A stretch of 32,000 nt of DNA from contig NZ_CP019384.1 of NCBI RefSeq assembly GCF_004102945.1, forward strand, positions 1,680,001-1,712,000, given 5' to 3'. Position 1 is the first letter of the stretch, and every line of letters starts with the position of its first letter. Positions 6,721-24,136 of the stretch are shown in pieces. This stretch comes from Candidatus Velamenicoccus archaeovorus (GTDB lineage Bacteria > Omnitrophota > Gorgyraeia > Velamenicoccales > Velamenicoccaceae). The notes under the pieces were generated by a model, which made no database searches, was not told the origin of the DNA, and saw only the letters and a list, made by a program, of their open reading frames with translations. Both the position numbers and the translations under genes were made by a program.

Positions 6721-6743
6721 ACTTATTCCTTAACTCCTCCGCC

Positions 6744-7489: not shown

Positions 7490-7517
7490 ATTGTATTCTT
7501 TTGACAGCAACTTTCAA
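7490..7517 (-). promoter_or_regulatory. Sigma70-like promoter for the desulforedoxin-like/PPC/thioredoxin-fold/OmpA-like unit
   Basis: Minus strand TTGAAA (7517..7512), 16-nt spacer, TACAAT (7495..7490). The predicted TSS near 7483 gives a ~28-nt leader containing the SD. Confidence 0.45.
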
Positions 7518-7604
7518 GAAATATTTAGGGTGGGAGCGGACCTTCTTGTAAAAAAGATCCGTGTTCTCCGTCGGAAAAACAACTCTCCGCGATCGCCGGA
7601 CATC

Positions 7605-8168
7605 TCAACGTCCGCCCTTCATCAGGGCGAGGGTTTCGGACCTTGTCTTCTCGTTCTCTTTGAAGACCCCGCGCACGGCGCTAGTCACGGTGGTGATGCC
7701 CGGTTTTTTAATACCTCGCATGCTCATGCACAGGTGTTCGGCCTCAATTACAACCATAACCCCAAGAGGTTTAAGAGTTTCCATAATAACCGTAGCGATC
7801 TGGGTCGTTAACCTCTCCTGGACCTGAGGCCTGCGGGAAAGGATCTCAACAACGCGTGCGATCTTGCTTAAACCTGTCACGCGGCCGCCCTTCGGGATAT
7901 ACGCAACGTGGGCGCGGCCGATAAACGGCAAAAGGTGATGCTCACAGATGGAATAAAGCGGGATGTCTTTTAAAAGAACGATCTCCTCATGTTTCTGATC
8001 CAGGACGACTTCCAGCTCTTTCTTGGGATCGGCTGAAAGGCCGGAAAGAATCTCTGCGTACATATCCGCGACACGCTCAGGGGTCTCGAGCAAGTCCTGC
8101 CTTTTGGGGTCTTCCCCGACGGCCTCAAGGATCATCTTGACGGCTTTGATCAATTTTTGCTTATTCAT
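7605..8168 (-). CDS. folE: GTP cyclohydrolase I (FolE type I)
   Basis: 187 aa with [16 protein letters not shown](I/V)KK and EAVGEDP..., the canonical FolE motifs at the canonical length. Confidence 0.92.
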
Positions 8169-8180
8169 GTCGCCCTCGCT

Positions 8181-9617: not shown

Positions 9618-10993
9618 AAAGATCTGGCTTCCCCGACGACAAAAAGGGATCCCGTGATCACAGCCACCTCTTGAGGCTGCATCTGATGGCTCAAAATATC
9701 CATGGCCTCTTCCACCGAGTGCGTGACAAGAGGGGATTTCTTATGGAAAAGCCCTTTAAGGTGTTTTTCGGGATCCGCCGCCCTCGGATGGTTGGCCTTC
9801 GTGAGGATCACCCGGTCCGCCATGGTCCCCAAAAGATCCGAGAGCCCCTTGAGGTCTTTATCCGAAGAGGCGCCGAAGACAAGCCATTTCTTGAAACCCT
9901 CGAATTCCTTCTCGATGAAATGAGCAAGACGGTAAGCCGACTCCCTGTTATGGGCGCCATCCAGGATGACAAAAGGCTGGGTTGAAACCACTTCCAGCCT
10001 GCCCGGCCAGTAAGCATTTCTGAGGCCTGAAACCATCGCCTCGACTGGAACGCGTATGCCGTAAAGGCCCAGTGCCTCAACCGCCGCCAGCGCCACAGAG
10101 GCGTTGGTCAACTGGTGCTCCCCCAGCATTCGAATATCAAAAAAATGAGAGCTGCCGTTGAGCCCGCGGTAAAAGAACCGCTGGGTCAAAAGGTCATGCG
10201 ACATCTCTTTATAACGGAAATCCTTGTTCATCACGAAAAACATCGTGTTTTGCGAACGGCACCGCCGCCTGACCACCTGGGCCGCTTCTTTCATCTGGGC
10301 GGCGCTGATGCAGATGCCAAAACCCTGCGAGGTCTTCTTGTTGGCGGCCTTGATGATGCCGGCCTTCTCGAAGGCGATCTCCGGCAGCGTCTTGCCGAGG
10401 ATATGCTCGTGATCGTAACTGATCGGGGTGATCACCGAGACCAAAGACGACGCCACATTGGTCGCATCCAGGCGGCCCCCCAGACCCGTCTCAAGCACGA
10501 CGGCGTCCGTTTTCTTGTCTGCGAAATATTTGAACGCCATCGCCGTCAAGACTTCAAAAAATGTCAGAGGACCATAAGGCGCGGAAAGGCGATCAAATTG
10601 TTCCAGCGCCCCCATCAGGCTTTCGAGCAAAGCGGCAAAATCATTTTTAAGGATCATCCCCGGAAACATCGTATGACCCTCCGCCGCATGACTCGGCTCG
10701 AGGATCCTGATGCGTTCCCGCATATCCTGCAGATGCGGCGAGGTATAAAGGCCGGTGCGATAGCCTGCATCACGCAGGATCTGCGCGATATAACAGGACG
10801 TGGAGCCCTTCCCTTTTGTGCCGGCGACATGAACGATGGAAAGCGTATCCTGAGGGCTGCCGATCAGCCGCAGAAGGGCCGCGACCCGATCGAGCTTGAA
10901 GGCCGTCCGGTAGGTCTCCGGCGGCCGGCGCTCGTAATTGATCAGTTTTTCCAGATATGCCAGGGCGTTTTCGTAGGTCATGAATGAGCACAT
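9605..10993 (-). CDS. folC: Folylpolyglutamate synthase / dihydrofolate synthase (FolC)
   Basis: Mur-ligase-family P-loop HVAGTKGKGST, length and motif order typical of FolC, and folate-pathway neighbours. The start is more likely ATG 10981 (MTYENALAYL), because 10993 lies inside a hairpin arm. Confidence 0.9.
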   Translation of the reverse strand: MCSFMTYENALAYLEKLINYERRPPETYRTAFKLDRVAALLRLIGSPQDTLSIVHVAGTKGKGSTSCYIAQILRDAGYRTGLYTSPHLQDMRERIRILEPSHAAEGHTMFPGMILKNDFAALLESLMGALEQFDRLSAPYGPLTFFEVLTAMAFKYFADKKTDAVVLETGLGGRLDATNVASSLVSVITPISYDHEHILGKTLPEIAFEKAGIIKAANKKTSQGFGICISAAQMKEAAQVVRRRCRSQNTMFFVMNKDFRYKEMSHDLLTQRFFYRGLNGSSHFFDIRMLGEHQLTNASVALAAVEALGLYGIRVPVEAMVSGLRNAYWPGRLEVVSTQPFVILDGAHNRESAYRLAHFIEKEFEGFKKWLVFGASSDKDLKGLSDLLGTMADRVILTKANHPRAADPEKHLKGLFHKKSPLVTHSVEEAMDILSHQMQPQEVAVITGSLFVVGEARSLWQH

Positions 10994-11156
10994 GACTTAT
11001 GGAGCTCTCGCGCGGCATAAGTCATTCGTGCGAATTTACCCCCACACCAATGAATACGATCGAAGATCACCGCATCATTGATGAGAGGGTTAACTCGGCC
11101 AAGCAACTACCGTTGAACTGCCGCTTCGCGGGCAACTTCCGTAAGTTGCGGCCTCG
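10992..11156. repeat. Hairpin-rich purH-folC spacer, a degenerate relative of the repeat family
   Basis: Perfect 10-bp stem ATGACTTATG/CATAAGTCAT (10992-11001 / 11016-11025). A three-hairpin cluster at 11093-11156 is closed by CTCGGCC...GGCCTCG, containing hairpins 11104-11115, 11121-11131 and 11132-11149. The GGTTAACTC motif at 11088-11096 is shared with the GGTTAACTCC boxes at 6176-6185 and 6605-6614. Confidence 0.5.
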
Positions 11157-12707
11157 TTAATGCTTGAAATGCCTGACGCCTGTGACTACCATGGCGATGC
11201 CGGCTTTGTCGGCGGCGCGGATGATCTCTTCGTCGGCGATAGAGCCGCCGGGTTGGATGACGGCCCTGATCCCTGCTTTTTTGGCCAAGGCAACGTTATC
11301 GGATTTAGGAAAGAAGGCGTCGCTGGCTAGGACAGCACCGCGGCTGCGCCGGCCGGCCCTTTTGACGGCCATGAACATCGAATCCACGCGGCTGGTCTCG
11401 CCCATGCCGATGCCGACGGTCGCGGTGCCGTGCGCCAGGACGATCGCGTTGGACTTGACGTGCTTGACGACTTCCCAGGCGAACAACAAAGAAATCATCT
11501 GGGCGCGCGTCGGTTTTTTGTGCGTGACGACCTTGAGATCCTTTGCAGCGGCATCTCTCGCATCCTTGTCCTGGACGAGAAAACCGCCGTCGATCCTCTT
11601 GGCGTCCCATGCCTGGGGATCTGCGGAAACCCCCGCGGCCATTTGAAGAAGACGCAGGTTCTTTTTGGCCTTGAGCAACGCCAAGGCCGCCGGCTCATAC
11701 GCAGGGGCCAGGATGCATTCCAAAAATCCGCTCTTCAAAAGAGCCCGGGCTGTTTTGGCGTCGACCGGCCTATTGAGACCGACAATCCCTCCGAAAGCGG
11801 AAAGCGGATCGCTCTGCCAGGCGTCATGAAACGCACGATCAAGGGTCTTGGCCTGGGCCACTCCCGTAGGATTCGTATGCTTGACGATACAAGCGCAGGG
11901 CCTGACAAAACCCCTGATATTTTCCAGGGCGGCATTCAGGTCCAGGTAATTATTAAAGGAAAGCTCTTTGCCATGGAGCTGCTTGGCGTTGACCAGGGTG
12001 GCAGCGGATTCAGATCCCTCCCAGCGGTAGAGACCGGCCTCCTGATGAGGATTCTCTCCGTAACGCAGCGACGCCGCCTTGGACAAAACTACATCCAGGC
12101 GTCCGGGAAACCGGTCCTGCGGCCCCCTTAAATACTGCGCAATGGCCGCATCGTAGCGTGCCGTCAGCTCAAAGACATCCGCAGCCAGGCTTTTAAGGAG
12201 CGATACCGGAAGACAGCCGTCATTCTCTTTCAGCGCTTCGATGATCGACGGATACACCTGCGGCCGGGAGACAACGGCGACAGAAGCATGATTTTTTGCG
12301 GCTGAACGCAACATCGACGGACCGCCGATATCGATATTCTCGATCGCCTCCTCTTCGGTAACGCCGGCCTTTGCAACAGTCTTTTCAAAAGGGTAAAGAT
12401 TGACCACGACCATGTCAATCAGGCCGATGCCGCAACTCTCCGCTTGTTTCAAATGCTCAGGATTGTCGCGGCGCGCCAGAAGGCCGCCATGGATTTTCGG
12501 ATGCAGGGTCTTGACGCGGCCGTCGAGCATCTCCGGGAATCCCGTGTAATCCGACATCTCGACAACATCGATCCCCGCTTCTTTCAAAGCCCTGGCCGTC
12601 CCGCCGGTCGAAACGATCTCAACGCCGAAATCCGAGAGGACTTTCGCAAGTTCCACGACGCCCGTTTTATCCGAAACGCTGATCAACGCCCTTTTTATCT
12701 TCAGCAC
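11157..12707 (-). CDS. purH: Bifunctional AICAR transformylase / IMP cyclohydrolase (PurH)
   Basis: 516 aa with the N-terminal MGS-like RALISVSDKTG, central and C-terminal AICARFT blocks, and the C-terminal VTGVRHFKH. GTG start at 12707 with GGAGAA upstream. Confidence 0.95.
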   Translation of the reverse strand: MLKIKRALISVSDKTGVVELAKVLSDFGVEIVSTGGTARALKEAGIDVVEMSDYTGFPEMLDGRVKTLHPKIHGGLLARRDNPEHLKQAESCGIGLIDMVVVNLYPFEKTVAKAGVTEEEAIENIDIGGPSMLRSAAKNHASVAVVSRPQVYPSIIEALKENDGCLPVSLLKSLAADVFELTARYDAAIAQYLRGPQDRFPGRLDVVLSKAASLRYGENPHQEAGLYRWEGSESAATLVNAKQLHGKELSFNNYLDLNAALENIRGFVRPCACIVKHTNPTGVAQAKTLDRAFHDAWQSDPLSAFGGIVGLNRPVDAKTARALLKSGFLECILAPAYEPAALALLKAKKNLRLLQMAAGVSADPQAWDAKRIDGGFLVQDKDARDAAAKDLKVVTHKKPTRAQMISLLFAWEVVKHVKSNAIVLAHGTATVGIGMGETSRVDSMFMAVKRAGRRSRGAVLASDAFFPKSDNVALAKKAGIRAVIQPGGSIADEEIIRAADKAGIAMVVTGVRHFKH

Positions 12708-12726
12708 GTGTTCTCCATTTTCTTTC

Positions 12727-12766
12727 TGTTCTCTGTACTCCCTGCCGGCAGGCAGGTGTTCTCTGT
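12727..12766 (-). promoter_or_regulatory. Two 10-nt direct repeats flanking a 12-bp perfect palindrome upstream of purH
   Basis: TGTTCTCTGT at 12727-12736 and at 12757-12766 (30-nt period) flank CCTGCCGGCAGG (12741-12752). A third partial copy, TGTTCTC (12709-12715), coincides with the purH SD region. Confidence 0.3.
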
Positions 12767-12779
12767 TATCTCTAGAAAG

Positions 12780-13481
12780 TCACACGCTAAACTTGAATTC
12801 CATGACATCGCCGTCCTTGACGACGTAATCCTTCCCTTCCTGGCGCAGGACGCCGGAGGACTTGGCCTGGTGGACATTGCCCGTTTTCACCAAGGCATCG
12901 TAATCCATGACCTCGGCCCGGATGAACCCCCGCGCGATATCCGAATGAATGGCATCTGCGGCCTCAACGGCTGTGGCACCTCGGCGGATCTCCCAGGCGC
13001 GGGCCTCCTTGGTGCCGCCGGTCAGAAAACAGATCATTCCCGCCTCGTCATAAGCCTTGCGCGTCACCGACGCGATATCGGTCATCTGGGCTTCGGGGAC
13101 AAAGACAACGGGCTTGATGGAAACGAAATTATTATTGGCCAGCCACTTTTTCTCGTCGAGAGAGAAATCGCCCAAGGACAAAGGCGTTTCCTTCTCCAGG
13201 TATTTTTGAGCGCGTTCCAAAAGTGTCTTTTCCTGTTGCGGCGGCTGACGCTCCAGCTTGCCCTCAAGGACCTCCATATCAAGGATCAAAAGATCCAGCC
13301 GCTTGCCTTCGGGACAGACGATCGCATCCGCAGTCTTCAAGTCCTTTTCCGTGACGAATTCTACCTGGATCTGCGTCACCTTCTGGGCCTTATATAACTC
13401 TTCGATCTTTTTTAAACGCGGTTCGGGCAAGGCCTTCTTGCCGAACGGAAAATCAGAAACGCCGAAAACGCATATTTTCAT
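12780..13481 (-). CDS. YchF-like protein retaining the coiled-coil and C-terminal TGS/DUF933 parts but lacking a canonical P-loop
   Basis: The C-terminus, EARAWEIRRGATAVEAADAIHSDIARGFIRAEV...EGKDYVVKDGDVMEFKFSV, is a near-textbook YchF C-terminal domain. The N-terminus, MKICVFGVSDFPFGKKAL, replaces GLPNVGKST. I prefer ATG 13481 (AAGGAA 6 nt upstream) to the track start 13565. Confidence 0.7.
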   Translation of the reverse strand: MKICVFGVSDFPFGKKALPEPRLKKIEELYKAQKVTQIQVEFVTEKDLKTADAIVCPEGKRLDLLILDMEVLEGKLERQPPQQEKTLLERAQKYLEKETPLSLGDFSLDEKKWLANNNFVSIKPVVFVPEAQMTDIASVTRKAYDEAGMICFLTGGTKEARAWEIRRGATAVEAADAIHSDIARGFIRAEVMDYDALVKTGNVHQAKSSGVLRQEGKDYVVKDGDVMEFKFSV

Positions 13482-13632
13482 AGAGATTCCTTCTTGCATC
13501 TCGGTCGTGGTTACGGCCAAGAAACCCGTCTCATTGTCGGGGTACATCGTTCGCCAAAGCGTCACCGAACAACCTTGCCCTCACGGACTTCGCTGCCGCA
13601 GCCGAACGACATTGCCGAAATCGCAAAATGCC

Positions 13633-15591
13633 TTACTCTTCCTCGTGCTTGTGCCGGGGGTTCTGGGCGACGATCCCCTGGGAGATTTTTGCCGGGACTT
13701 CTTCGTAGGACGAAAAATGCATCGTGTAGCTCCCCCGGCCCCCTGTCATGGAACGCAGGTCCGTGGCGTAACGAAACATCTCGGCCAAGGGCACAAGGGC
13801 CTTGATGGTCTGGTTCTTGCCGCGCGCCTCAACGCCGAGGACCCGCCCTCGCCTGGAATTGAGGTCCGCGGGGATGGAGCCCATGCACTCCTCGGGAACG
13901 GTCACCTCGACCTCCATGATAGGCTCAAGCAGGATCGGCTGGGCATCCATGGCCGCCTTGCGAAACGCCAAGGCGCCGGCGATCTGAAAAGCCATATCGG
14001 AGGAATCTACGTCGTGATAGGAGCCGTCATAAGCGGTGGCGCGCACGCCCACCATGGGGAACGATGTGATCACCCCGCCCAGCATGGCGTTATGCACCCC
14101 TTTCTCGACGGAAGGGATAAAATTCCTCGGGATGGCGCCTCCGACGATCTTGTCGACGAACTCAAAATCCTTACCACGCTCCAGAGGCGCGACCTCCAGC
14201 CAAACGTCGCCATACTGGCCCCGGCCCCCGGATTGTTTTTTGTGCTTGCCCTGGGCCCTGGCCGCCTTCTTGATCGTCTCCTTATAGGGCACTTTGGGAG
14301 TGCCGATCTCAACCTCGACGTGATAACGCTCTTTGAGGCGCTTGACCATGACGTCGATATGCTGGTCCCCGAGGCCGGAAATGATCGTCTCCTTGGTCTG
14401 CGTATCGCGAGAGATCTTGAACGTCGGGTCTGAGGCGCAAAGCTTGGCGAGGGCCTCCGAGATCTTTTCTTCGTCCTGGCGGGTCTTGGGTTTGATGGAA
14501 GAAGAAAAGACCGGTTCCGGAAAGGCGATCGGCGCAAACACAACCTGCTGTTTCTCGTCGGCCAGGCTGTCGCCCAAAAGGGTCTCTTTAAGTTTGGACA
14601 CAGCCACAATGTCGCCGCATGAAGCCGACGCGACCGGCCGCTGTTCTTTGCCCTGCAAAAGAATCAACTGGCCGATCCTCTCCTTTGTGCCGCGCGTCAC
14701 ATTATAAAAACCGGTATTGCCTGCCAGGGTGCCTGAAAAAATCCGCAAGATCGTCAATTGGCCGACAAAGGGGTCTACGACGGATTTAAACACGAAGGCC
14801 GCGAAGGGCGCATCCTCGGCAAGCTTGAGCTCGCGCGGCTGGTCCGTCTGGGCGTCGGTCACGGCGACGGCCGGCCGTTCCAGCGGCGAAGGCAGATAAT
14901 CCACAATAAAATCCAAAAGCTCCTTGGTGCCCTTGTCCGTCAGGGCCGAGCCTGCGATGATAGGATAAAGTTTTCCCTTCACGATAGCGTCTTTAAGGGC
15001 TTTTTTGAACTCTTCTTCCTTGATCTCCTTGCCCTCAAGGTAGCGCTCCAGGAGTTCGTCATTGGTCTCGGCGATCGCCTCCTTCAATTCTGCCGAGACA
15101 GGAAAGGAAACGACGGCCGCAGCCTTGGAAAACCTCTCTTTGATCTCCCGGACAACTTCGTCCAGATTGACGTTCTCCTTATCGGTCTTATTGATAAAGA
15201 TCAAGCGCGACAGCTTCAATTCTTCTAAGGCATCCCATGCCCGTTCGGTGCCGACCTCAATGCCTCCGGTCGCGTCTATGACCAGGATGCCGGCATCGAC
15301 CGCGCGCACGGCCCCGAGCATGTCTGCGGCAAAATCCGCATAACCGGGCGTGTCCACCATCTGGACAGAGTGGTTACGCCAGGACAAATGGCACAGGCTG
15401 GAATTGATAGAATTCTTGCGCTGAATCTCATCGGCGTTATAGTCGCTCGTTGTATTGCCTTCGGCGATCGCCCCCTTGCGGGAAACGGCACCGGCGGCGA
15501 AAAGAAGGGCTTCTACCAACGTGGTCTTGCCCGCTTGGGCGTGAGATACAAAAACAACAGTTCTTTTGGCATCAGGCTTGACGTTGTCCAT
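13633..15591 (-). CDS. Elongation factor G paralogue (EF-G-like translational GTPase with an atypical G3 motif)
   Basis: 652 aa. G1 is SHAQAGKTT, G3 is DTPGYADF (canonical DTPGHVDF) and G4 is NKTD. Domains II-V are recognisable, including the domain IV tip SYHDVDSSDMAFQIAG. SD GGGGAG lies 7 nt before ATG 15591. Confidence 0.85.
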   Translation of the reverse strand: MDNVKPDAKRTVVFVSHAQAGKTTLVEALLFAAGAVSRKGAIAEGNTTSDYNADEIQRKNSINSSLCHLSWRNHSVQMVDTPGYADFAADMLGAVRAVDAGILVIDATGGIEVGTERAWDALEELKLSRLIFINKTDKENVNLDEVVREIKERFSKAAAVVSFPVSAELKEAIAETNDELLERYLEGKEIKEEEFKKALKDAIVKGKLYPIIAGSALTDKGTKELLDFIVDYLPSPLERPAVAVTDAQTDQPRELKLAEDAPFAAFVFKSVVDPFVGQLTILRIFSGTLAGNTGFYNVTRGTKERIGQLILLQGKEQRPVASASCGDIVAVSKLKETLLGDSLADEKQQVVFAPIAFPEPVFSSSIKPKTRQDEEKISEALAKLCASDPTFKISRDTQTKETIISGLGDQHIDVMVKRLKERYHVEVEIGTPKVPYKETIKKAARAQGKHKKQSGGRGQYGDVWLEVAPLERGKDFEFVDKIVGGAIPRNFIPSVEKGVHNAMLGGVITSFPMVGVRATAYDGSYHDVDSSDMAFQIAGALAFRKAAMDAQPILLEPIMEVEVTVPEECMGSIPADLNSRRGRVLGVEARGKNQTIKALVPLAEMFRYATDLRSMTGGRGSYTMHFSSYEEVPAKISQGIVAQNPRHKHEEE

Positions 15592-15604
15592 TTCTTATCT
15601 CCCC

Positions 15605-15775
15605 TTGATTTTGCCACGAGTGGGTGAGTTTACCTTGCAAAATCAACTCCAAGCTTGCTCGGTCTGCTGAAACAGCAGACCAGGGAAATTTTTCCGGATG
15701 GCCGTCCTGGCCGGCTGCGCCAGGCCGACGGCCTTCCCTGGAAAAATTTACAAGCGCATAAGCAAGGAGTCAAAC
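15605..15775. repeat. Repeat modules in the EF-G-paralogue leader: short hairpin (15605-15646) plus long hairpin LH4 (15645-15775)
   Basis: TTGATTTTGC-N22-GCAAAATCAA, then AACTCCAAG...GGTCTGCTGAAACAGCAGACC...GGGAAATTTTT-[40-nt block 15694-15733]-...GGAAAAATTT...CAAGGAGTCAAAC. Confidence 0.8.
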
Positions 15776-15896
15776 TCAATGAACGGACAATTTACACGAA
15801 CGAATGAAATAAATGAACGCAAATTGTGTTACGTCCGTAGCGCTCCATAAACCTGGGCTGTATTTAACTGTCTGCCGCAAAAAACGTTAGGTGTTT

Positions 15897-15925
15897 ATTA
15901 TAATAGATAAACCTCAAAGCGTCAA
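15897..15925 (-). promoter_or_regulatory. Near-consensus sigma70 promoter driving the EF-G-paralogue unit
   Basis: Minus strand TTGACG (15925..15920), 17-nt spacer, TATAAT (15902..15897). It lies just downstream of the kamA terminator. The predicted TSS near 15890 implies a ~300-nt leader. Confidence 0.6.
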
Positions 15926-15973
15926 TGGAACCGTCACGGAGGCCGCAGAAGGGGTGCTCAAGGCCCTGGAGGC

Positions 15974-16006
15974 CAAAAAAAGCCCCCTTTTGCTCAAAAG
16001 GGGGCT
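15974..16006 (-). terminator. Rho-independent terminator after kamA
   Basis: AGCCCCCTTT/AAAGGGGGCT stem (15981-16006). On the minus strand it is followed by TTTTTTT (plus-strand A-run 15974-15980). It starts 22 nt after the stop at 16029. Confidence 0.85.
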
Positions 16007-16028
16007 CAAGATCGCGGGAAAACCGCCA

Positions 16029-17252
16029 TTATTCTACATAGGTGTAAATCTTACCTTTATAATTACGCAATACGTGTTTGCCCTTATCCTGCGAAATCAG
16101 GTAGCTGGGGCCCACGGGGATCTTGCCGCCGCCTCCCGGAGCATCCACCACGTAGGTCGGGACGGCATAGCCAGAGGTGAAACCGCGCAGCTTTTCAATG
16201 ATATTGATGCCTACCGCCACGGGCGTGCGGAAATGCGCCGTGCCCTTGACCGGGTCGCATTGATAAATGTAATACGGCCGCACGCGCACCTTCAAGAGCT
16301 CATGCATGAGCTTTCTCATGATGTAGGGTTTGTCGTTGATGCCTTTCAGAAGCACAGTCTGACTGCCCAAAGGAATGCCCGCATCAGCCAGCATGTCCAA
16401 GGCTGCCTTGCAACGCCGCGAAACCTCCCGCGGATGGTTAAAATGGATGCTGATCCAAAGCGGTGAATATTTTTTGAGCATCGCAATAAGGGATTCAGTG
16501 ATCCTGTGGGGGAGAGTGACCGGGACGCGTGTGCCCAGGCGGACAAATTCCACATGCGGTATGCTCTTGATCTTCCTGATGATCTCTTCAAGCTCGCTAT
16601 CTTCAAGCATCAGGGGATCGCCTCCTGAGATCAAGACATCGCGGATCTTCTTGTTGGAACGGATATAATCCGCGGCCGCGTCGAGCGCTTTGGCATTCAT
16701 GGCATGCGATACCTTCTCGCCCACGAGGCGCCTGCGCGTGCAATGGCGGCAATACATGGCGCACTTCTCCGTGCTCAACAAAAGGACCCTGTCGGGATAC
16801 CTGTGGACCAAGCCGCTGGCCGGAGAATCACGGTCTTCGGCGCACGGATCGACGAATTCGTTAGCGCCAAACTGGAATTCTTGTTTCAAAGGGACGGCCT
16901 GCCTGCGGATGGGACACTCGGGATCGTCAGGGTCCATCAAGGTCGTCCAATAAGGTGTGATGGCCATCGACAAACGGCCGTTGGACTTTTTGATACCCTC
17001 CTCTTCTTCCGGCGTCAGGATAAGAACCTTGGAGATCGCCTCAAGGCTGTGGATACGGTTGTCGATCTGCCAATGCCAATCTTCCCACTGCTCTTCAGGA
17101 ACGTCCTTCCAAAGCGCGACCTTGCGATAGTCGCCGATACAGCCGCGGCGCACCAGCGTCTGCGGTGACGCATGTTCCAATGTCTGGGCTTGGCTTGCCA
17201 GTTGACCCTCCTTGATTTTGCCTATATTGAAGTATTTTCCCTGCAAAATCAA
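16029..17252 (-). CDS. kamA: KamA-family radical-SAM aminomutase (lysine 2,3-aminomutase-like)
   Basis: CAMYCRHCTRRR (the CxxxCxxC cluster), GGDPL, SLRMAITPY-like RLSMAITPYW, and PTYVVDAPGGGGKIP. The N-terminus aligns with clostridial KamA from about residue 40 (YRKVALWKDVPEEQWEDWHWQ). The track start (TTG 17252) lies inside a repeat hairpin. The real start is uncertain: CTG 17201 just after SD GGAGGG, or a downstream TTG or GTG. Confidence 0.88.
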   Translation of the reverse strand: MILQGKYFNIGKIKEGQLASQAQTLEHASPQTLVRRGCIGDYRKVALWKDVPEEQWEDWHWQIDNRIHSLEAISKVLILTPEEEEGIKKSNGRLSMAITPYWTTLMDPDDPECPIRRQAVPLKQEFQFGANEFVDPCAEDRDSPASGLVHRYPDRVLLLSTEKCAMYCRHCTRRRLVGEKVSHAMNAKALDAAADYIRSNKKIRDVLISGGDPLMLEDSELEEIIRKIKSIPHVEFVRLGTRVPVTLPHRITESLIAMLKKYSPLWISIHFNHPREVSRRCKAALDMLADAGIPLGSQTVLLKGINDKPYIMRKLMHELLKVRVRPYYIYQCDPVKGTAHFRTPVAVGINIIEKLRGFTSGYAVPTYVVDAPGGGGKIPVGPSYLISQDKGKHVLRNYKGKIYTYVE

Positions 17253-17491
17253 CCCCGAGCTTACGCAGAAAATTTATGCCGACGCGTCGTGGCATAAATT
17301 TTCAAGTGCTTAAGCGAGGGGTGAAAATGCATTCCTTAATCCTGCCTCTGGCAGGATTAACTCCGAGTGTAGCTGAAAAATTTGTGGATGCCCGCCGAGA
17401 CCTGGCCCAGGCCAAAGGCCGGGCCGAGACGAGGCTGGGTGCATCCAGAAATTTCAGCTGTTTACACGAGGAGTCAAGTCGATTCCTTAAT
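17212..17491. repeat. Repeat modules between the ATP-grasp gene and kamA: short hairpin, LH5, short hairpin, LH6, TTCCTTAAT box
   Basis: TTGATTTTGC-N21-GCAAAATCAA (17212-17252). LH5 at 17251-17326 (AACCCCGAG...AGAAAATTTATGCC...GGCATAAATTTTC...CGAGGGGTGAAA). TTAATCCTGCC-TCT-GGCAGGATTAA (17336-17360). LH6 at 17359-17478 (AACTCCGAGTGTAGCTGAAAAATTTGTGGATGC...GCATCCAGAAATTTCAGCTGTTTACACGAGGAGTCAAG). TTCCTTAAT at 17332-17340 and 17483-17491. Confidence 0.8.
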
Positions 17492-17492
17492 T

Positions 17493-18497
17493 TTACCTAT
17501 CCTTCTCCTGCCCTGTGCGTTCCAGGGCTGTGTCGATAATCTTCAATATCAACCCCTGATACGTCATACCTTCCGCCTGCGCAATCAGCGGAAAGACGTC
17601 GGCGCTCGACAGCGACGGCAACGGGTTCAATTCAAGGACATAGGGCCGGCCGGATTCGTCGACGCGAAAATCCACGCGGCCGAAATCCAGACAGCCGACA
17701 GCCCTGTAAGTCCGGACCGCCATATCGCAGAGCTCACGGCGCAAGGCCTCATCCACTTTCGGGGGACACACATAGACGACATCATCGCCTTCCAGGCGGC
17801 GCGACGTATAAATCAAGTCTCCAAGTTGCAGGTGCCCGGTGATCTGGATCTGCACGGGCATCAGGGCACGCGGCTCCTTGTTGCCGATCACCAGGACCGT
17901 AAACTCCCCACCCCGGATAAACTCCTCGACAAGCGCCGGCTGCCTGTAAAGCCGAGACAGCTCCCTCACCTGGCGCTCCAAGGCCGTCCTGTCGAAAACG
18001 ATAGAATCTTCGGAAACCCCCTTGGACGAACCCTCATGGCAAGGCTTGACGATAAAAGGGAATCGCATCGAATCCAGATTATTAAAATCATATTGCTCGT
18101 CTGCCAGGAAAAATTTCGGCGTCGAGACGCCTTCGCTTAAAAAAACCTTCTTCGCCATCGCCTTGTCGAGGGTCAACCCCATCGTCAAACCGTCGGAACC
18201 CACATAGGGAACACCAAGGATATCAAGAACCACCGGCACCTGTGATTCGCGGTTCCTGTTGCCCAACCCTTCACAAATATTAAGAACGATGTCGATACTC
18301 GCGAGCTCGCGGCTGCGGCCCAAAAGATTCGCGGCATTGCCGATCTTGACAACCTTGTGCCCGCCGGACTCCAGGGCCTCTACGACTTCCTGTATCGTGG
18401 CTTCATGATCCAATTCGGCGAAATGGTCCGACGGCACGTCAGCCACGGCAGGATGGTCGCTTTTCAGGTCATATGTAAAACCGATTGTTTTTCCCAT
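17493..18497 (-). CDS. D-alanine--D-alanine ligase-family ATP-grasp enzyme (short, divergent; substrate unknown)
   Basis: 334 aa. The sequence runs MGKTIGFTYDLKSDH...LGVPYVGS...DKAMAKKVF...FPFIVKPCHEGSSKGV...VEEFIRGGEFTVLVIG...GRVDFRVDESGRPYVLELNPLPSL, with the Ddl/ATP-grasp motif order. Confidence 0.8.
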   Translation of the reverse strand: MGKTIGFTYDLKSDHPAVADVPSDHFAELDHEATIQEVVEALESGGHKVVKIGNAANLLGRSRELASIDIVLNICEGLGNRNRESQVPVVLDILGVPYVGSDGLTMGLTLDKAMAKKVFLSEGVSTPKFFLADEQYDFNNLDSMRFPFIVKPCHEGSSKGVSEDSIVFDRTALERQVRELSRLYRQPALVEEFIRGGEFTVLVIGNKEPRALMPVQIQITGHLQLGDLIYTSRRLEGDDVVYVCPPKVDEALRRELCDMAVRTYRAVGCLDFGRVDFRVDESGRPYVLELNPLPSLSSADVFPLIAQAEGMTYQGLILKIIDTALERTGQEKDR

Positions 18498-18530
18498 GAA
18501 TTCCCGCTCTTTCGACGGGGGCTAAATAAT

Positions 18531-18560
18531 AAAAAAAGGGACCCCGCTGTCGAGAGTCCC
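18531..18560 (-). terminator. Intrinsic terminator-like hairpin in the ATP-grasp gene leader (attenuator or sRNA 3' end)
   Basis: Minus strand GGGACTCT-cgacagc-GGGGTCCC followed by TTTTTTT. The two non-Watson-Crick positions are G-U on the minus strand but C-A on the plus strand, which indicates minus-strand function. It sits 33 nt upstream of ATG 18497 and ~55 nt downstream of a candidate promoter. Confidence 0.6.
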
Positions 18561-18620
18561 TTAACACATTAACTTTTTGATTTGAATCTCCTTTGATTTA
18601 AAAATTTTATCTATAAACAA

Positions 18621-18649
18621 AAATTATCACAATAAATTACCCTTGTCAA
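18621..18649 (-). promoter_or_regulatory. Sigma70-like promoter upstream of the ATP-grasp/kamA operon
   Basis: Minus strand TTGACA (18649..18644), 17-nt spacer, TAATTT (18626..18621), within the only strongly AT-rich stretch of the spacer. Confidence 0.45.
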
Positions 18650-18765
18650 GATGTTTTGAGCGGCTTGAGCCGATTTTTTTCGCCCTTTTTCCCGTCGGGA
18701 AAAAAATTTTCGTCTCACGGCGCGGAAAATATCCTTGCCGGAAAAACAATTCGCTAAAATTTTCC

Positions 18766-19575
18766 CTAAAACTGGCTGCGCCGCTCGAATGCCGAGCAGG
18801 AGAACAGCCCGAGCGCGGTGATCAGAAGGAAAGATTGAAAGATATAGAGTCCTGCCGGGATGTCGAGATGGAAAAACCGGAGCTCTTTCATGGAAATACC
18901 GAGGAGGGTATTGATCTGCGGCAAGGCATTGAGGCCCAGACGGGCCGCTTTTTCAAAAAAGACGGGCCAGCCGAAACGCGCAAAGACCAGGCGCGCCGAA
19001 GACGTGCCGAAACCGGCGATGACGACAAAAATGGTCAAGACGCCGGCCATCATGTTGGGCATGAGGCAATAGAAAAAAACGACGAGGCTGACATACAGGA
19101 TCCCCAGGAGCGCGGCGACGGACAACCCGCTCCAGACAAACGGCAAGAGCATCCTTTCATGGGACAAGACGACCAGCCAGATGCCGGAGGTCATCAGAAA
19201 CCAGTTAATGAGGATCATCTGATAGAGGCCGAGAAGGACGCCGGCCATGATCTGCCACCGCCGCACAGGCCGCGATAAAAGCAGGACGAGCCTTTCAAAA
19301 GCCAGGTAATTCTGCATCGTATTGAGCGAAACAAAAACGGCGATCAAGAGAATAAAGATGTGGATGGCGACGAAGCCGATCTGCAAAGACGAAGTCAGGG
19401 CCGGCTGGTTTTCAAAAACTTTCGGGTCGGCCACCATGTAGGGGACATTGGCCATTAAAATAAAAAGAAAGGAAAGGAGGAGAAAGCCGTACATCATCTT
19501 CTCGCGCACGGCGGCACGGTAGACATCTCCGGCGATCAGGCGGACCTGCCAGAGGAAAAGCAGAGGACCTCTCAT
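18766..19575 (-). CDS. ABC-2-type transporter permease
   Basis: 269 aa with six or more hydrophobic helices. It overlaps the upstream ABC ATPase gene by ATGA (19572-19575). No finer assignment is possible by eye. Confidence 0.65.
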   Translation of the reverse strand: MRGPLLFLWQVRLIAGDVYRAAVREKMMYGFLLLSFLFILMANVPYMVADPKVFENQPALTSSLQIGFVAIHIFILLIAVFVSLNTMQNYLAFERLVLLLSRPVRRWQIMAGVLLGLYQMILINWFLMTSGIWLVVLSHERMLLPFVWSGLSVAALLGILYVSLVVFFYCLMPNMMAGVLTIFVVIAGFGTSSARLVFARFGWPVFFEKAARLGLNALPQINTLLGISMKELRFFHLDIPAGLYIFQSFLLITALGLFSCSAFERRSQF

Positions 19576-20333
19576 GATGCCCCCTTGACCAGTTGTAAAA
19601 AGATCGGCTCCAGGCCGCCCTCGGCGGCAAAATCCTGAGCCGATGCGACCCTCAGGAGACGGCCGCGGGCGATGACCGCGACGCGGTCGGAAAGCCTCTC
19701 GATCAATGGCAAGGTGTGAGAAGACAAAAAAATGGTCTTGCCTTTCTTTTTGAGCATGCCGATGATGCCCCGGAAACGCTCGACGGCCAGAGGATCGAGA
19801 TAAACGGTGGGTTCGTCGAAGAAGATCAGGTCGGGATCGTGAACAAGGGCCAGCGCCAAATCCAGGAGACGCCGCTGCCCCATCGAAAGGCTGCGCACGA
19901 AGGTGGCGCGTTCCCGCAAGACAAAACCTATCATCTCAAACATGGAAGCGATGCGCTCCCGGACGGTCGCGCCCGGCAAACCATAGAGACGCGCAAAAAA
20001 AGACAGGAGTTCCGTCATCGTCATATCCGCCGGCAGATACGTGCTCTCCGGGACATAACCGATGCGGGACAGAGGCCAAATCTGACCGCAGCGAAAAGGC
20101 TTTCCGAAAATCTCGATGCCGCCAGCCGTCGGACGCGAGATCCCCGCGAGCATGTGCAGGGTTGTCGTCTTGCCGGCGCCGTTCGGGCCCAAAAAACCGA
20201 AAACCTCGCCGCGGCGGACATCCAGGGTCAAATCGATAACGGCCCGGACCTTTTTTTGAAAAAAAACAGGGCCGCTTTTATACTCTTTGGAAAGACTCTG
20301 CGTTTTTAAAACGATGTTTTCTTCTGAGGCCAT
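19572..20333 (-). CDS. ABC transporter ATP-binding protein
   Basis: Walker A GPNGAGKTT, signature LSMGQRRLL, Walker B LIFFDEP, H-loop SSHTL. The track start 20450 adds 39 Arg/Gly-rich residues read through the HAD gene, so I use ATG 20333 (MASEENIVLKTQ). Confidence 0.88.
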   Translation of the reverse strand: MASEENIVLKTQSLSKEYKSGPVFFQKKVRAVIDLTLDVRRGEVFGFLGPNGAGKTTTLHMLAGISRPTAGGIEIFGKPFRCGQIWPLSRIGYVPESTYLPADMTMTELLSFFARLYGLPGATVRERIASMFEMIGFVLRERATFVRSLSMGQRRLLDLALALVHDPDLIFFDEPTVYLDPLAVERFRGIIGMLKKKGKTIFLSSHTLPLIERLSDRVAVIARGRLLRVASAQDFAAEGGLEPIFLQLVKGAS

Positions 20334-20944
20334 ATGCCCATCTCTTGAAGTTCCTGCCGGCACGCCGCGGCACCCTTGAAAACGACCGAACGGATCCCCA
20401 TCTGTCTGGCAGCGGCGACGAGGTCTTCCCTGTCGTCGATATAAAGGCATTGCGGCACGCCATAGCCCGATGCCCGGATCGCCCGGTCGTAAATCTCCCG
20501 ATGGGGCTTGCGGTGGCCGATCTCATAAGACAAGAAGATGTCGTCGAAGACAGCAATATGATCGGAAAAATTCTTGCGGATGAAAGCGTAGTGCAGTTCG
20601 TTGATGTTGGAGACCAGATGCAGGCGAAAATCCTTCTTCAATTCTTTGAGCCACGCGAGCATCTCGCCGGAATCGAAGAAGATATCGCTCCAGGCGGCGC
20701 AGAACTCTTCGTACCCCAAGCCCGGGGCCGCCAACGCGGCGCTCACATGCTTGAAAAAATCCGCCGAGGAAACACGGCCCTCCTCATAATCCTTGGTAAA
20801 GGGGGAATCGAAAAAAAGCTGGTAGATCTCATCGGAGGACTTGGCGCAATGGGGCAGGATCCGGCGCACAGCGATGCGATGGTCAAAATGCAACAACACA
20901 TTCCCCAGGTCACAAAGGATCAACTTCACGTCGGCCGTCGTCAT
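20306..20944 (-). CDS. HAD-superfamily hydrolase (subfamily IA-like)
   Basis: Motif I-like LILCDLGNVLL, motif II HLVSN, motif IV YIDDREDLV. Length 212 aa. The SD context is hairpin-CTTAAGG-N7-ATG. Confidence 0.75.
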   Translation of the reverse strand: MTTADVKLILCDLGNVLLHFDHRIAVRRILPHCAKSSDEIYQLFFDSPFTKDYEEGRVSSADFFKHVSAALAAPGLGYEEFCAAWSDIFFDSGEMLAWLKELKKDFRLHLVSNINELHYAFIRKNFSDHIAVFDDIFLSYEIGHRKPHREIYDRAIRASGYGVPQCLYIDDREDLVAAARQMGIRSVVFKGAAACRQELQEMGIWPQKKTSF

Positions 20945-20982
20945 GGAATCGCCTTAAGACCCGCAAGAGGCATGACTGCGGG

Positions 20983-21951
20983 CTAATTGTTCTTTTTAAG
21001 GGGCTTTTTAAACAGATCGAGGAAGCTGTCTTCATACTGCTCGTAAACATTCCACTTATCCAGCTCTTTTTTGAGCTCGATGGCGCGGGAGAGATCCTTC
21101 TTGGCCATCTTAAAAAGATCTTCGATCTTTTTGGCGGCCGACTCCGGCAGGCTGGCCGACTCCGCCAATCCCTTTTTGATGATATCAATCTCTTTCTGGT
21201 CGATCGGTTTTTCCTCTTCGGGGGGATTTTTAAGATATTCTATCAGGTGCTCGATCTCCTGGCTGATCTGATCGGCGTGTTTCTGCAGTTCGCCCAAATC
21301 CACGGAAAGCTTCAGATGGCGCACCAGGGCCTCCAAGACCATCTTGGAAGCCAGGGGATTTTCGATCTGGATGGTGTAGAGAGGGATCTCACCCAGAAGG
21401 CAAACGCCGTCCAGGCCCCTTTCCTTGGCGACACCCAGGATGAGGCCGTTCAAGCCGCTGATCTGCCCCGAAGGCATGCTCTTGACATTGGCTTTCTCAA
21501 ACTGGTCGAGGATCTCCTTCTTTGTGGCGACGGCGTACACCTCCGGTATCTGCGTGTGCTCGATCGGCAAGGGCATGGCCGCGAAGGTATAGACGGTTTT
21601 GACCTTCATTGAAACGATGAAATCCACGATCTCGGAGGCGTACTCATAACCTTTTTCGATGAACGGTTGGGCGTCGCTGATGAAAATGATGATGTCGGAG
21701 ACGCCGGCCGGGTTACGAAAGAAATAAAAACGGCCGACGGGATGCTGGGGGATGTCGATCAGATTGTTATCGATCCAGACGCCTGAAGGATGGAAATATT
21801 CACAGGACTCCAGGGTCGCAAACTCCTGGGCCCCTAGTTTGTCCTTGAGATAGGTCGCGGCCTTCAGGGCGACATCTCCCATGCCGGGCCACGCCGCGAT
21901 CAAAACCGGATTCTTGAGGCGGATACGTTTCTTAACAGTAATAGATTTCAT
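20983..21951 (-). CDS. PAC2 (proteasome assembly chaperone 2-like) family protein with a ~90-aa charged helical C-terminal extension
   Basis: N-terminal NPVLIAAWPGMGDVALKAATYLKDKLGA and the following ~230 aa fit the bacterial/archaeal PAC2 pattern. The C-terminus is E/K-rich and predicted helical. Confidence 0.6.
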   Translation of the reverse strand: MKSITVKKRIRLKNPVLIAAWPGMGDVALKAATYLKDKLGAQEFATLESCEYFHPSGVWIDNNLIDIPQHPVGRFYFFRNPAGVSDIIIFISDAQPFIEKGYEYASEIVDFIVSMKVKTVYTFAAMPLPIEHTQIPEVYAVATKKEILDQFEKANVKSMPSGQISGLNGLILGVAKERGLDGVCLLGEIPLYTIQIENPLASKMVLEALVRHLKLSVDLGELQKHADQISQEIEHLIEYLKNPPEEEKPIDQKEIDIIKKGLAESASLPESAAKKIEDLFKMAKKDLSRAIELKKELDKWNVYEQYEDSFLDLFKKPLKKNN

Positions 21952-21962
21952 AACGGTAGCCC

Positions 21963-21991
21963 ATTCTATCCTTTTTTGAAAAACAGTTCAA
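21963..21991 (-). promoter_or_regulatory. Sigma70-like promoter immediately upstream of the PAC2 gene (would give a near-leaderless mRNA)
   Basis: Minus strand TTGAAC (21991..21986), 17-nt spacer, TAGAAT (21968..21963). Only 11 nt separate the -10 from ATG 21951, and there is no SD. Confidence 0.45.
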
Positions 21992-21999
21992 TAGAAGAA

Positions 22000-23145
22000 T
22001 CACCTGTCCCCGCCGGGCGAGAAACCAGCGTCGAAGATCCTGATAAAACGCTCCAGGACGCGCGCCCCGCGCTCAAGGTCGACGACCCTGACAAATTCAT
22101 CCGTCGCATGGGCGCAGCCGCTTGCCCCCCAGCCGGTGGCCACCGCCGGGATGCCCTTGCGTTTGAAGAACGTGATGACGGTCGCCCCTTCGCTGCCCGT
22201 AACACGGGAAACGGCGATCCCCTTGGCGGCCGCCTTCAGACCGCGCACAAGCGGATGATGACATGAAATTTCATAAGGCTGCTGAATGTCGTTGACCGCC
22301 AGCCTGAAAGGAATACCAGTCCTGCGCAACCTTAGTTTGATCGCGGCCAGGATCTTCGCCGCATTCATCCCCGGCAGGAAACGCAGGTCCACCTCGAAGG
22401 CACACCAGTCGGCGACCATGTTCACCTTGTCTCCGCCGCGGATCGTCCCGATGTTGACGGTCGGAGGCGCCAGAAGTGCATGCGGCCTGGAGACAAACTT
22501 CATCTGTTTAAGCGCAGCAATCAGCGTGACAGCCCGGTCGATGGCATTGACACCCCTGTGCGGATAAGCGCCGTGCGCCTTGCGGCCGGGCACTTCGACC
22601 TTGAAATGAATCAACCCCTTCTGCGCCGTGACGATATTGAACGCGTCGGCATCCAGGATAAGGGCGTACTCCGGCCTGACGCGGCTTTTTTCCAGCCACG
22701 GCACGAGTCCCTTGGCAGACCCTGTTTCTTCGTCGGCGGTCGCAAGAAAAATCCAATCCCCATTCAAGGAAACACCGTCTTCCTTGAGGCTATGCAGGAC
22801 TTCCAAGGCCACAGCCAGATTCCCCTTGCAATCTGTCGCGCCGCGGCCGTAAATCCTGCCGGCCTCCAATTTCCCTGAAAAAGGGCCGTGGACCCATCCG
22901 TTTCCTGCCGGCACCGTATCCAGATGAGGCGACAAGAGAACGGAATATTTTTTCTCCCGCCCCTTCAAGACCGCCATCACATTGTCGCGGCGGGGAACAT
23001 ATGTCAGGATCTCGGGCTTGAGGCCTGCCTGACGCAGCTGACCGGCCACAAAAGCGGCAACAGCCCGTTCGTCACCGGGAGGATTTTCGGAATTAACGGC
23101 CACCAATTGCCGTATCAAGCGTATCAAGCGTTGTTTATTTATCAT
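22000..23145 (-). CDS. M20-family metallopeptidase (ArgE/DapE-type deacylase)
   Basis: 381 aa with LLSPHLDTVP, GRGATDCKG, ATADEETGS and the dimerisation-domain insert, in the typical M20A motif order. Substrate is not assignable. Confidence 0.8.
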   Translation of the reverse strand: MINKQRLIRLIRQLVAVNSENPPGDERAVAAFVAGQLRQAGLKPEILTYVPRRDNVMAVLKGREKKYSVLLSPHLDTVPAGNGWVHGPFSGKLEAGRIYGRGATDCKGNLAVALEVLHSLKEDGVSLNGDWIFLATADEETGSAKGLVPWLEKSRVRPEYALILDADAFNIVTAQKGLIHFKVEVPGRKAHGAYPHRGVNAIDRAVTLIAALKQMKFVSRPHALLAPPTVNIGTIRGGDKVNMVADWCAFEVDLRFLPGMNAAKILAAIKLRLRRTGIPFRLAVNDIQQPYEISCHHPLVRGLKAAAKGIAVSRVTGSEGATVITFFKRKGIPAVATGWGASGCAHATDEFVRVVDLERGARVLERFIRIFDAGFSPGGDR

Positions 23146-23233
23146 TTTTACTCATCACCTGGAGCCCCACGGGCTGAGCCTCGCCCGCCCAAGCGGGCAG
23201 GGAATTCTGGCAAACGGGATTAAAACTTGCGGC

Positions 23234-24136
23234 TCACGCAAGATATCCCATCTTCTTCAGAAGGTCCTTGTCTTCCTTCCATTTATTCTCGCATTTTACC
23301 CAGAGGTCAAGGAAAAATTTTCTCCCGTAGATCTGCTGCAATTCCTTGCGGGCGCTCTCTCCGGCCTTTTTCAGCACGGCCCCTCCCTTGCCGATGACGA
23401 TCGCCTTTTGCGTCTCTCTCTCGACAAGGACCGCGGCCTTCACATAAGTCAACCTCCGGCTCCTGTCCGCAATCTCTTCGACATGAACGGCCAGCGAAAA
23501 CGGCAGCTCTTCTTTAAGGACCAAGAGCAATTTTTCGCGGATAACGTCCTGGATCGCCAGCTGCCGCGGAAAATCCGTCAGGACATCCGCCGGATAAAGA
23601 GGCCCTCCTTCCGGCAGGCGCGCGAAGATCTCGTCCACCAGTTTATCGACATTCGTCCCTTTCAACGCCGACACAGGAACGGGCATCAAGCGGTCTGTCG
23701 CCTCATTCAAAGATCGACCGATGGCGTTTTCCCAAGCTGCGAGATATTCGGGGATATAGTGCACGGGTATATCCACCTTGTTCAATCCCAGGACCACCGG
23801 GGCCCGTGCCGCGCAAAGCCTCTGGATGGCCTTCGTCTCTTCATCTCCAACATGTCTGGTGACATCGACCAGGTGCAAGAGAACATCCGCCCCCTCGACC
23901 GTATCATTCACAAGGCTGATCATGGCACGATCCAGGGCATGACGGCTGGTGTGGAGTCCCGGCGTATCGCAAAAGACGATCTGTCCCCGGACATCATTGA
24001 AAACAGCCCGGATCTGGTGCCGCGTCGTCTGCGGCACGGGCGAAACAATGGCCACCTTCTCACCGGCGAGATGATTGAGCAGGGTCGACTTGCCGACGTT
24101 CGGCCGGCCGATGATTGCGACGATTCCGGATTTCAT
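23234..24136 (-). CDS. era: GTPase Era
   Basis: GRPNVGKSTLLN, DTPG and NKVD, followed by a C-terminal KH domain (VLVERETQKAIVIGKGGAVLK). Length 300 aa. Confidence 0.93.
   Translation of the reverse strand: MKSGIVAIIGRPNVGKSTLLNHLAGEKVAIVSPVPQTTRHQIRAVFNDVRGQIVFCDTPGLHTSRHALDRAMISLVNDTVEGADVLLHLVDVTRHVGDEETKAIQRLCAARAPVVLGLNKVDIPVHYIPEYLAAWENAIGRSLNEATDRLMPVPVSALKGTNVDKLVDEIFARLPEGGPLYPADVLTDFPRQLAIQDVIREKLLLVLKEELPFSLAVHVEEIADRSRRLTYVKAAVLVERETQKAIVIGKGGAVLKKAGESARKELQQIYGRKFFLDLWVKCENKWKEDKDLLKKMGYLA

Follow-up and report, generated by a model that had tools for sequence, protein, structure and literature searches.

What would a lysine 2,3-aminomutase have to do with a ligase that resembles D-alanine-D-alanine ligase (Ddl)? 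This question is raised by a stretch of 32,000 nucleotides from Candidatus Velamenicoccus archaeovorus, a member of the Omnitrophota (assembly GCF_004102945.1, contig NZ_CP019384.1, positions 1,680,001 to 1,712,000; hereafter the window, numbered from its first letter). Here, the list of open reading frames (ORFs) contains two adjacent frames on the minus strand, one coding for an ATP-grasp protein (17493..18497) and one for a KamA-family aminomutase (16029..17252). To our knowledge, beta-lysine has three established fates, namely acetylation to an osmolyte, transfer to elongation factor P (EF-P), and use in antibiotics or fermentation. A first-pass annotation, made from the sequence alone, proposed that the pair represents a beta-lysine ligation pathway and that this pathway might modify translation factors encoded nearby. 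Our analysis supports the former part, since the two genes behave as one functional unit composed of a lysine-type KamA and a ligase that is not a Ddl, whereas the link to translation factors was not supported. The reading that we consider the probable one is that of a self-contained module that produces beta-lysine and incorporates it by ligation into a small amide.

The pairing itself was followed by scanning the species representatives of GTDB, which yielded 80 loci, all from Omnitrophota-type metagenome-assembled genomes (MAGs). Of the non-redundant loci, 73 extend far enough downstream to be informative, and in every one of them KamA is encoded downstream of the ATP-grasp gene, on the same strand and within 1.7 kb. 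A second, paralogous ATP-grasp gene (36-41% identical) lies between the two in 51 of these loci, and 22 carry a single ligase gene as the window does. The closest relative is locus L007 (Omnitrophica UBA6210), with 87% identity at the ATP-grasp protein. When 1.84 billion representative proteins were searched with a profile, 2,749 relatives were obtained at E < 1e-30; among the best 150, about 45 carry two ATP-grasp units fused in tandem. Furthermore, fusions between ATP-grasp and KamA exist in both orders (ATP-grasp first in P0189, KamA first in P0239 and P0256). An archaeal MAG encodes two ATP-grasp proteins and KamA beside the ribosomal proteins L31e and S19e; a Myxococcota MAG combines KamA with a fused double ATP-grasp protein and a GNAT acetyltransferase; and soil metagenome loci show either two ATP-grasp genes, GNAT and KamA, or KamA followed by three ATP-grasp genes and GNAT. 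At locus L089 (195-3873), next to Na+/H+ exchangers, a KamA-ATP-grasp fusion precedes a fusion of ATP-grasp and GNAT. The linkage in 73 of 73 loci, the fusions and the recurrence in unrelated lineages show that the pairing, whose conservation had been put forward as the first thing to examine, is not due to chance, and they support KamA and ATP-grasp as one functional unit. The window locus is probably a two-gene operon and a reduced form of a widespread cassette of three to four genes, comprising two Ddl-like ATP-grasp genes, KamA and often GNAT.

Several of these distant loci also point to small-molecule chemistry of amino acids. On plasmid pTHIMO01 of Thioflavicoccus mobilis 8321 (L177, positions 6691-12172 of the record), a diaminobutyrate transaminase, SbnA, an SbnB-like cyclodeaminase and a Ddl-like ATP-grasp protein are encoded together, and a convergent short KamA gene adjoins this cluster. 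This cluster suggests peptides built from diamino acids, in a cultured relative that is experimentally tractable. The fusion P0189 (L087, 6001-8088) adjoins a PLP (pyridoxal phosphate) enzyme resembling capreomycidine synthase and GntC as well as a RaSEA-like radical-SAM (S-adenosylmethionine) protein, and at another locus a double ATP-grasp gene adjoins a peptidase of the S58 (DmpA) family. The GNAT proteins associated with the cassette score best, although weakly, on RimI models; an identity as AblB was rejected since the AblB model is not matched.

The aminomutase of the window has Pfam matches to Radical_SAM and LAM_C, the latter covering only positions 1-56 of 127. It aligns to the Clostridium lysine 2,3-aminomutase (2A5H) over residues 4-367 with E = 2e-141 and 475 bits, and ends at the equivalent of residue 367, so that the C-terminal zinc domain (C375, C377, C380) is missing. 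In agreement, the position of the zinc ligand C268 is never a cysteine in 76 KamA relatives (K or R in 73, S or D in three). The catalytic residues are kept: the CxxxCxxC motif (C125, C129, C132) occurs in the window protein and in all 76 family members, and as many share Y113, Y290 and the carboxylate-binding R134. The window protein likewise has the PLP-binding K337 and the two ligands of the epsilon-ammonium group of lysine, D293 and D330, each of which is shared by 75 of 76 members. For D293 the exception is P0189, which carries D293Q and additionally R112V.

Hidden Markov models (HMMs) assign the protein in the same way. The best model is NCBIfam AblA (TIGR03820) with 518.9 bits, and the 6.5 bits lacking to its cut-off of 525.4 are explained by the missing C-terminus. 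The general KamA-family model TIGR00238 is passed (354.9 against a cut-off of 199.2), whereas the scores stay below the cut-offs for glutamate (471 of 650 bits) and arginine (396 of 600 bits) aminomutases and for EpmB (TIGR03821, 244.4 of 369.3 bits); the two lysine-binding aspartates, which would be expected to be replaced in a glutamate or arginine enzyme, are retained. Judged from residues, domain extent and model scores taken together, the protein is a short-form lysine-type 2,3-aminomutase with predicted activity, and its scores set it apart from EpmB, which had been named as one possible placement. Its gene most likely starts with CTG at 17201 (KamA 16029..17201, minus strand, about 390 residues), as read from a GGAGG motif five nucleotides upstream (region 17199-17219, minus strand), although the frame stays open to 17252. 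The same arrangement of GGAGG and CTG is kept in the window, L007, L009, L019, L017, L015 and L025, and in some of them an in-frame stop immediately precedes it. The starts that gene callers assigned to kamA in public records lie further downstream and give proteins of 363 or 382 residues.

These residues also bear on the possibility that the pair is linked while beta-lysine is not the substrate of the ligase. KamA could then isomerize a lysine peptide made beforehand by the ligase, or could use another basic amino acid. Family members without an adjacent KamA would fit this order of events, and the two exchanges in P0189 point to substrate drift within the family. Nevertheless, D293, D330 and R134 are intact in 75 to 76 of the 76 members, and all characterized KamA-family enzymes known to us act on free amino acids, which are bound to PLP via the alpha-amino group. 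We regard this alternative as unlikely.

The ligase (17493..18497, minus strand, 334 residues) is the orthologue of the protein designated ATPg1 in the related genomes. It matches the Pfam domain Dala_Dala_lig_C (PF07478, E = 1.8e-33), but its N-domain has no match to Dala_Dala_lig_N (PF01820). Its best score against the NCBIfam Ddl models is 177 bits at a cut-off of 243, all other Ddl and Van models score lower, and ATPg2, the archaeal and the fused members likewise remain under the Ddl cut-offs. Residues were compared with E. coli DdlB, whose sequence is identical to that of structure 1IOV. Here, the ATP/Mg and transition-state residues R255, D257, E270 and N272 and the EGSS loop are kept, whereas the substrate pocket is altered by the exchanges H63 to E, E68 to R, Y216 to L and S281 to D, and the region around E15 of DdlB is not alignable in the window protein. 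This is the picture of a ligase that is predicted to be active and has a non-Ddl pocket. A RimK domain (PF08443) was not matched at E <= 0.001. On non-Omnitrophota ligases, HMMs built for ATPg1 and ATPg2 give nearly equal scores, which do not sort these proteins into the two types.

Could the protein nevertheless be a genuine D-Ala-D-Ala ligase, whose position next to KamA is inherited synteny of no functional meaning? Many homologues are indeed annotated as D-alanine-D-alanine ligase at source. Since the pocket residues, including the E15 motif, H63, Y216 and S281, are lost and the scores lie under every NCBIfam Ddl cut-off, with the Ddl N-domain unrecognized, the ligase is by these measures not a genuine Ddl. 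Two tandem paralogues accompany KamA in most genomes and fusions with KamA exist, which is difficult to reconcile with fortuitous adjacency, and homologues from rhizobial and Thioflavicoccus plasmids are closer to the window ligase (31-35% identity) than true Ddl enzymes are (26-29%). This explanation is therefore very hard to maintain. A canonical ddl gene was not found in the 1.9 Mb of gathered loci, a figure that is uninformative about whole genomes. The ATP-grasp proteins from rhizobial symbiotic plasmids show 33-35% identity to the window ligase; on pNGR234a of Sinorhizobium fredii NGR234 (L176) the gene adjoins one for a CapA-family protein, with no KamA gene nearby.

A role at the cell envelope would not require a genuine Ddl. 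ATP-grasp D-aspartate ligase decorates the stem peptide of peptidoglycan, and in a comparable manner beta-lysine could be joined to a precursor of peptidoglycan or to some other component of the envelope, or a variant Ddl could produce an unusual dipeptide terminus. The closest solved relatives of the ligase are Ddl enzymes (E = 8e-32), its conserved N-domain residues Arg81 and Arg83 could bind an anionic substrate such as a nucleotide or a carboxylate, and conservation throughout the phylum suggests a housekeeping role. On the contrary, the archaeal cassette flanked by L31e and S19e lies in an organism in which murein is not expected, and none of about 170 loci has mur, fts or ddl-type neighbors. 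Furthermore, the GNAT, diamino-acid and natural-product-like neighbors found elsewhere fit soluble metabolites better. An envelope function thus appears improbable, and the archaeal occurrence together with the diamino-acid, natural-product and GNAT contexts favor a soluble metabolite.

For the beta-lysine ligation module, the following course can be envisaged. KamA, as a radical-SAM and PLP enzyme, would turn free L-lysine into beta-lysine. The ATP-grasp enzyme would use ATP to convert a carboxylate into an acyl-phosphate, which would then be condensed with an amine; beta-lysine presumably enters this reaction as either the acyl donor or the amine acceptor. The product would be a dipeptide-like small molecule, an amide containing beta-lysine, and in lineages with two ligases and a GNAT it could be longer or N-acetylated. 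Expression appears to be gated by a conserved promoter and subsequently by a leader with a mini-ORF and a terminator. As to its physiological role, the product may serve as a cationic or compatible solute or as a bioactive peptide.

Some observations weigh against this reading. In about eight to nine of roughly 20 informative loci outside the Omnitrophota, a pair of ATP-grasp genes occurs without an adjacent KamA, often with GNAT, so that a connection with beta-lysine is not obligatory for the ligases. Within the pocket, the aspartate at the position of S281 is invariant across the ATPg1 clade of the Omnitrophota and not in the wider family, hence this exchange is specific to the clade. In about half of the Omnitrophota loci, the operon continues into a paralogue of elongation factor G (EF-G). 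Furthermore, it is not obvious why a whole phylum of nanobacteria, living mostly in freshwater and groundwater, should keep one small metabolite, and we know of no product, substrate or activity for any member of the ligase/KamA family.

Among known systems, the closest in logic is AblA/AblB, which forms the osmolyte N-epsilon-acetyl-beta-lysine (yodO/yodP in B. subtilis). In both, the operon couples an AblA-type mutase to a single amide-forming enzyme for beta-lysine, but the partner is an ATP-grasp ligase instead of a GNAT, and the KamA described here does not have the C-terminal zinc domain. EpmB/EpmA, which beta-lysylates EF-P, likewise combines a KamA-family enzyme with an ATP-dependent activator of beta-lysine, and both mutases are short. 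In contrast, the activator EpmA is a paralogue of lysyl-tRNA synthetase and not an ATP-grasp protein, and the EpmB model reaches only 244 of 369 bits. An EpmA-like gene was not present among the scanned window ORFs of at least 150 residues, nor were GNAT/AblB, kamDE, kdd or kce, in accordance with the earlier statement that the known partners of beta-lysine are lacking in the flanks. Protein beta-lysylation by the module is judged unlikely.

The Ngg/AsnO system, which makes N-acetylglutaminylglutamine amide (NAGGN), resembles the module family in combining an ATP-grasp dipeptide ligase with a GNAT, as seen in the ATP-grasp-GNAT fusions and adjacencies. Its ATP-grasp enzyme is not known to be Ddl-like; the window has no GNAT, and the proposed substrate is beta-lysine and not glutamine. 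With Ddl and Van ligases the ligase of the module shares the PF07478 fold family and all ATP/Mg and transition-state residues, and it differs from them in the replaced substrate pocket, the unrecognized N-domain, the scores under the cut-offs and a context free of cell-wall genes.

Clusters of the negamycin and blasticidin S type also unite a 2,3-aminomutase with amide formation by an ATP-grasp enzyme, a likeness of gene content, and the clusters around P0189 and of Thioflavicoccus resemble such natural-product-type pathways. In difference to these strain-specific clusters, the Omnitrophota module is a minimal, phylum-wide operon among housekeeping genes. In the literature on aminomutases or beta-lysine together with ATP-grasp enzymes, and on Omnitrophota aminomutases, we found no account of a module of KamA and a Ddl-like ATP-grasp ligase. 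The only mention found is that of beta-lysine formation and an ATP-grasp enzyme occurring together in the negamycin cluster, in a preprint (bioRxiv 10.1101/2025.05.27.656397).

If the reading of a ligation module is true, the dedicated Ddl-like ATP-grasp partner would represent a fourth route for beta-lysine, and abundant nanobacteria of the environment would be expected to contain a metabolite with beta-lysine. Conservation of the partner extends over a whole uncultured phylum, and it has spread, sometimes in fused form, to archaea, Myxococcota and soil bacteria as well as to a plasmid in a cultured purple sulfur bacterium. The analysis also corrects the label "D-alanine-D-alanine ligase", which thousands of proteins routinely receive. 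The two-gene operon and the natural fusions are constructs with which this can be tested directly, and the conserved leader may be a new attenuator.

With respect to expression, all parts of the layout proposed by the first-pass annotation, i.e., promoter, hairpin, ATP-grasp gene, spacer, kamA and terminator, are present in the window. The promoter-like element (18621..18649, minus strand) was read from the sequence as TTGACA and, after 15 nt, TGTGATAAT, and is of the extended -10 type. Although TTGACA...TGTGATAAT (18649..18621) stays below the threshold of a simple consensus scan, the element TTGACA ... T[GA]TGATAA occurs at the same position upstream of the ATP-grasp gene in at least 56 distinct related loci. 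Throughout the phylum (L005, L020-L086 and others), the leader is built from a TTGACA/TGTGATAA promoter, a GGAGG, TTG as an invariant triplet with an A-run after it, and a GGGCTC...GAGCCC hairpin with a T-run. In an alignment of 30 leaders, conservation is highest in the columns of the A/TTG and of the A-run behind it. Most relatives read GGAGG-N13-14-TTG GAA AAA, which would give a mini-ORF "MEK(IG)" of 3-7 codons with its stop 0-12 nt ahead of the foot of the hairpin. The subclade of the window has ATC or ATT in place of TTG; here the motif (18561..18591, minus strand) is GGAG followed by ATC AAA AAG TTA ATG TGT TAA, a possible mini-ORF. The intrinsic-terminator hairpin GGGACTC...GGGTCCC with its T-run occupies 18529..18562 (minus strand; 18562..18536 in the terminator scan) and separates the promoter from the first codon of the ATP-grasp gene. 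The distance from the end of the T-run to this start is only a few nucleotides in many loci, with no visible Shine-Dalgarno (SD) sequence, the starts in relatives being extrapolated from tblastn alignments.

The terminator is the sole consensus structure recovered by RNAalifold, with seven pairs of which four show compensatory changes. A covariance model (R1) matches once per locus, always upstream of the ATP-grasp gene, and has no further match in the roughly 0.95 Mb of loci. Rfam contains no family matching the window at 15400-18900 or a representative leader, and the known lysine and preQ1 riboswitches were rejected on this ground. The leader is thus a candidate for a ribosome-mediated attenuator, in which a ribosome that translates the mini-ORF as far as its stop codon, at the hairpin foot, would prevent termination. 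The long spacing of 13-14 nt between SD and TTG and the non-canonical start codon of the window subclade count against this. In the clade with two ligases (L024, L027, L033, L034, L048, L055 and others), the two arms of an inverted repeat, ATATTGTGAT ... ATACAATAT, enclose the promoter at about -60 to +25, and the clade of the window has a palindrome, TTTTCCCGWCGGGAAAA, at 40-60 nt upstream of the -35 element (18686-18704 in the window). Both look like operator sites of putative regulators.

The intergenic spacer between ligase and kamA (17202..17492, minus strand) had been noted as structured, and it folds strongly indeed (z = -6.95 and -3.77). A scan of its coding strand revealed neither a terminator-like nor a promoter-like site. 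Its second half is common to L007 only, and its first half is unique apart from a partial copy at 5972-6033. In L009, whose KamA is 90% identical, the spacer has 27 nt, and in other relatives it has 12-70 nt or the genes overlap. A conserved element or a relic of ATPg2 was therefore rejected; the spacer is a lineage-specific palindromic insertion of repeat elements and not a conserved part of the system.

The same applies to the hairpin that abuts the SD sequences of kamA and of the EF-G paralogue and was taken to connect the two. A 28-nt repeat does precede both genes (17235-17262 and 15629-15656, 86% identical), but it is found only in the window and L007 and has a further copy near 6439-6475, so that the common hairpin was rejected as a regulatory link. 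Its 10-bp stem abuts the SD of kamA, and a second copy that of EF-G. The repeats belong to a family of ATTTTGC...GCAAAAT[CT]AAGGA hairpins and longer palindromes, which are intergenic in this genome and in L007 and are found in the window at 17202-17492, 15592-15660, 5972-6033 and 6439-6475.

Downstream of kamA, a strong intrinsic terminator (15980..16007, minus strand; terminator scan and folding), with a 12-bp stem, six GC pairs and a T-run, ends the operon in this genome. It is followed by the EF-G paralogue (13633..15591, minus strand), a syntenic neighbor outside the module, which has its own promoter (15925..15897, 11 of 12 consensus positions). The loss of the catalytic histidine noted earlier in this protein is correct: in its 652 residues, with a shortened G' region, DTPGY replaces DTPGH. 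All 34 orthologues inspected carry DxPG[Y/F]xDF, with P-loop and NKxD intact, and they form a phylum-wide EF-G clade that is probably unable to hydrolyse GTP. The neighboring YchF-like protein (12780-13565, minus strand), described before as lacking the P-loop, matches only positions 269-368 of the YchF model. It comprises the C-terminal DUF933/TGS part only, with GVSDFPFGKK at the N-terminus instead of a Walker A motif, and in most loci its gene comes next after the EF-G paralogue, often overlapping it.

It is here that the possibility of protein modification has to be weighed, in which the ATP-grasp enzyme would attach beta-lysine to a translation protein, be it the EF-G paralogue, EF-P or a ribosomal protein, in the manner of EpmA/EpmB or RimK. 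In many Omnitrophota loci, KamA is followed at a distance of 10-150 nt by genes for the EF-G paralogue and the C-terminal YchF protein, the leader resembles a translation-sensing attenuator, and the cassette GNATs outside the phylum are nearest, again weakly, to RimI models. Nevertheless, among 66 Omnitrophota loci the EF-G gene lies within 600 nt of KamA in 34, further downstream in nine and is absent in 23, and it is missing from the cassettes of the archaeal MAG, the Myxococcota, the soil metagenomes and the gammaproteobacterial plasmid. In the window it has its own promoter behind the terminator, and the hairpin that it shares with kamA is the lineage-specific repeat. Furthermore, KamA scores as AblA-type and not EpmB-type, and the ligase is Ddl-like and, with no match to PF08443, not RimK-like.

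The synteny block points in the same direction. It comprises Era, an M20 deacylase (ArgE/DapE-type), PAC2, a HAD hydrolase, the ligase or ligases, KamA, the EF-G paralogue, the YchF C-terminal protein and PurH, and it is not functionally uniform, since PurH, the M20 deacylase, PAC2 and the HAD hydrolase are also present. The gene order is unusually stable between 11157-24136 of the window and about 60 loci, with proteins only about 50% identical. The synteny with EF-G in roughly half of the phylum is noteworthy, yet it is no demonstration of a substrate relationship. Modification of a translation protein is thus unlikely, and the proposals of the first-pass annotation that the module modifies translation factors, with the EF-G and YchF-like proteins as targets, are not supported.

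Beta-lysine antibiotics include streptothricin, viomycin and negamycin. A more speculative combination would be a beta-lysine amide that itself acts on the translation machinery, as an endogenous ribosome-binding cation or, like these antibiotics, a ribosome-targeting toxin, with the EF-G and YchF-like proteins as partners or as self-protection and with a leader that senses translation; beta-lysylation of a translation protein by the ATP-grasp enzyme would be its variant. We give this idea little weight as compared to the soluble product of the ligation module.

Directly upstream of the operon, the window encodes an ABC-2 exporter of the DrrA type with ATPase and permease (18766-20450, minus strand). 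It adjoins the operon solely in the single-ligase subclade of the window, and could be a candidate exporter of the module product.

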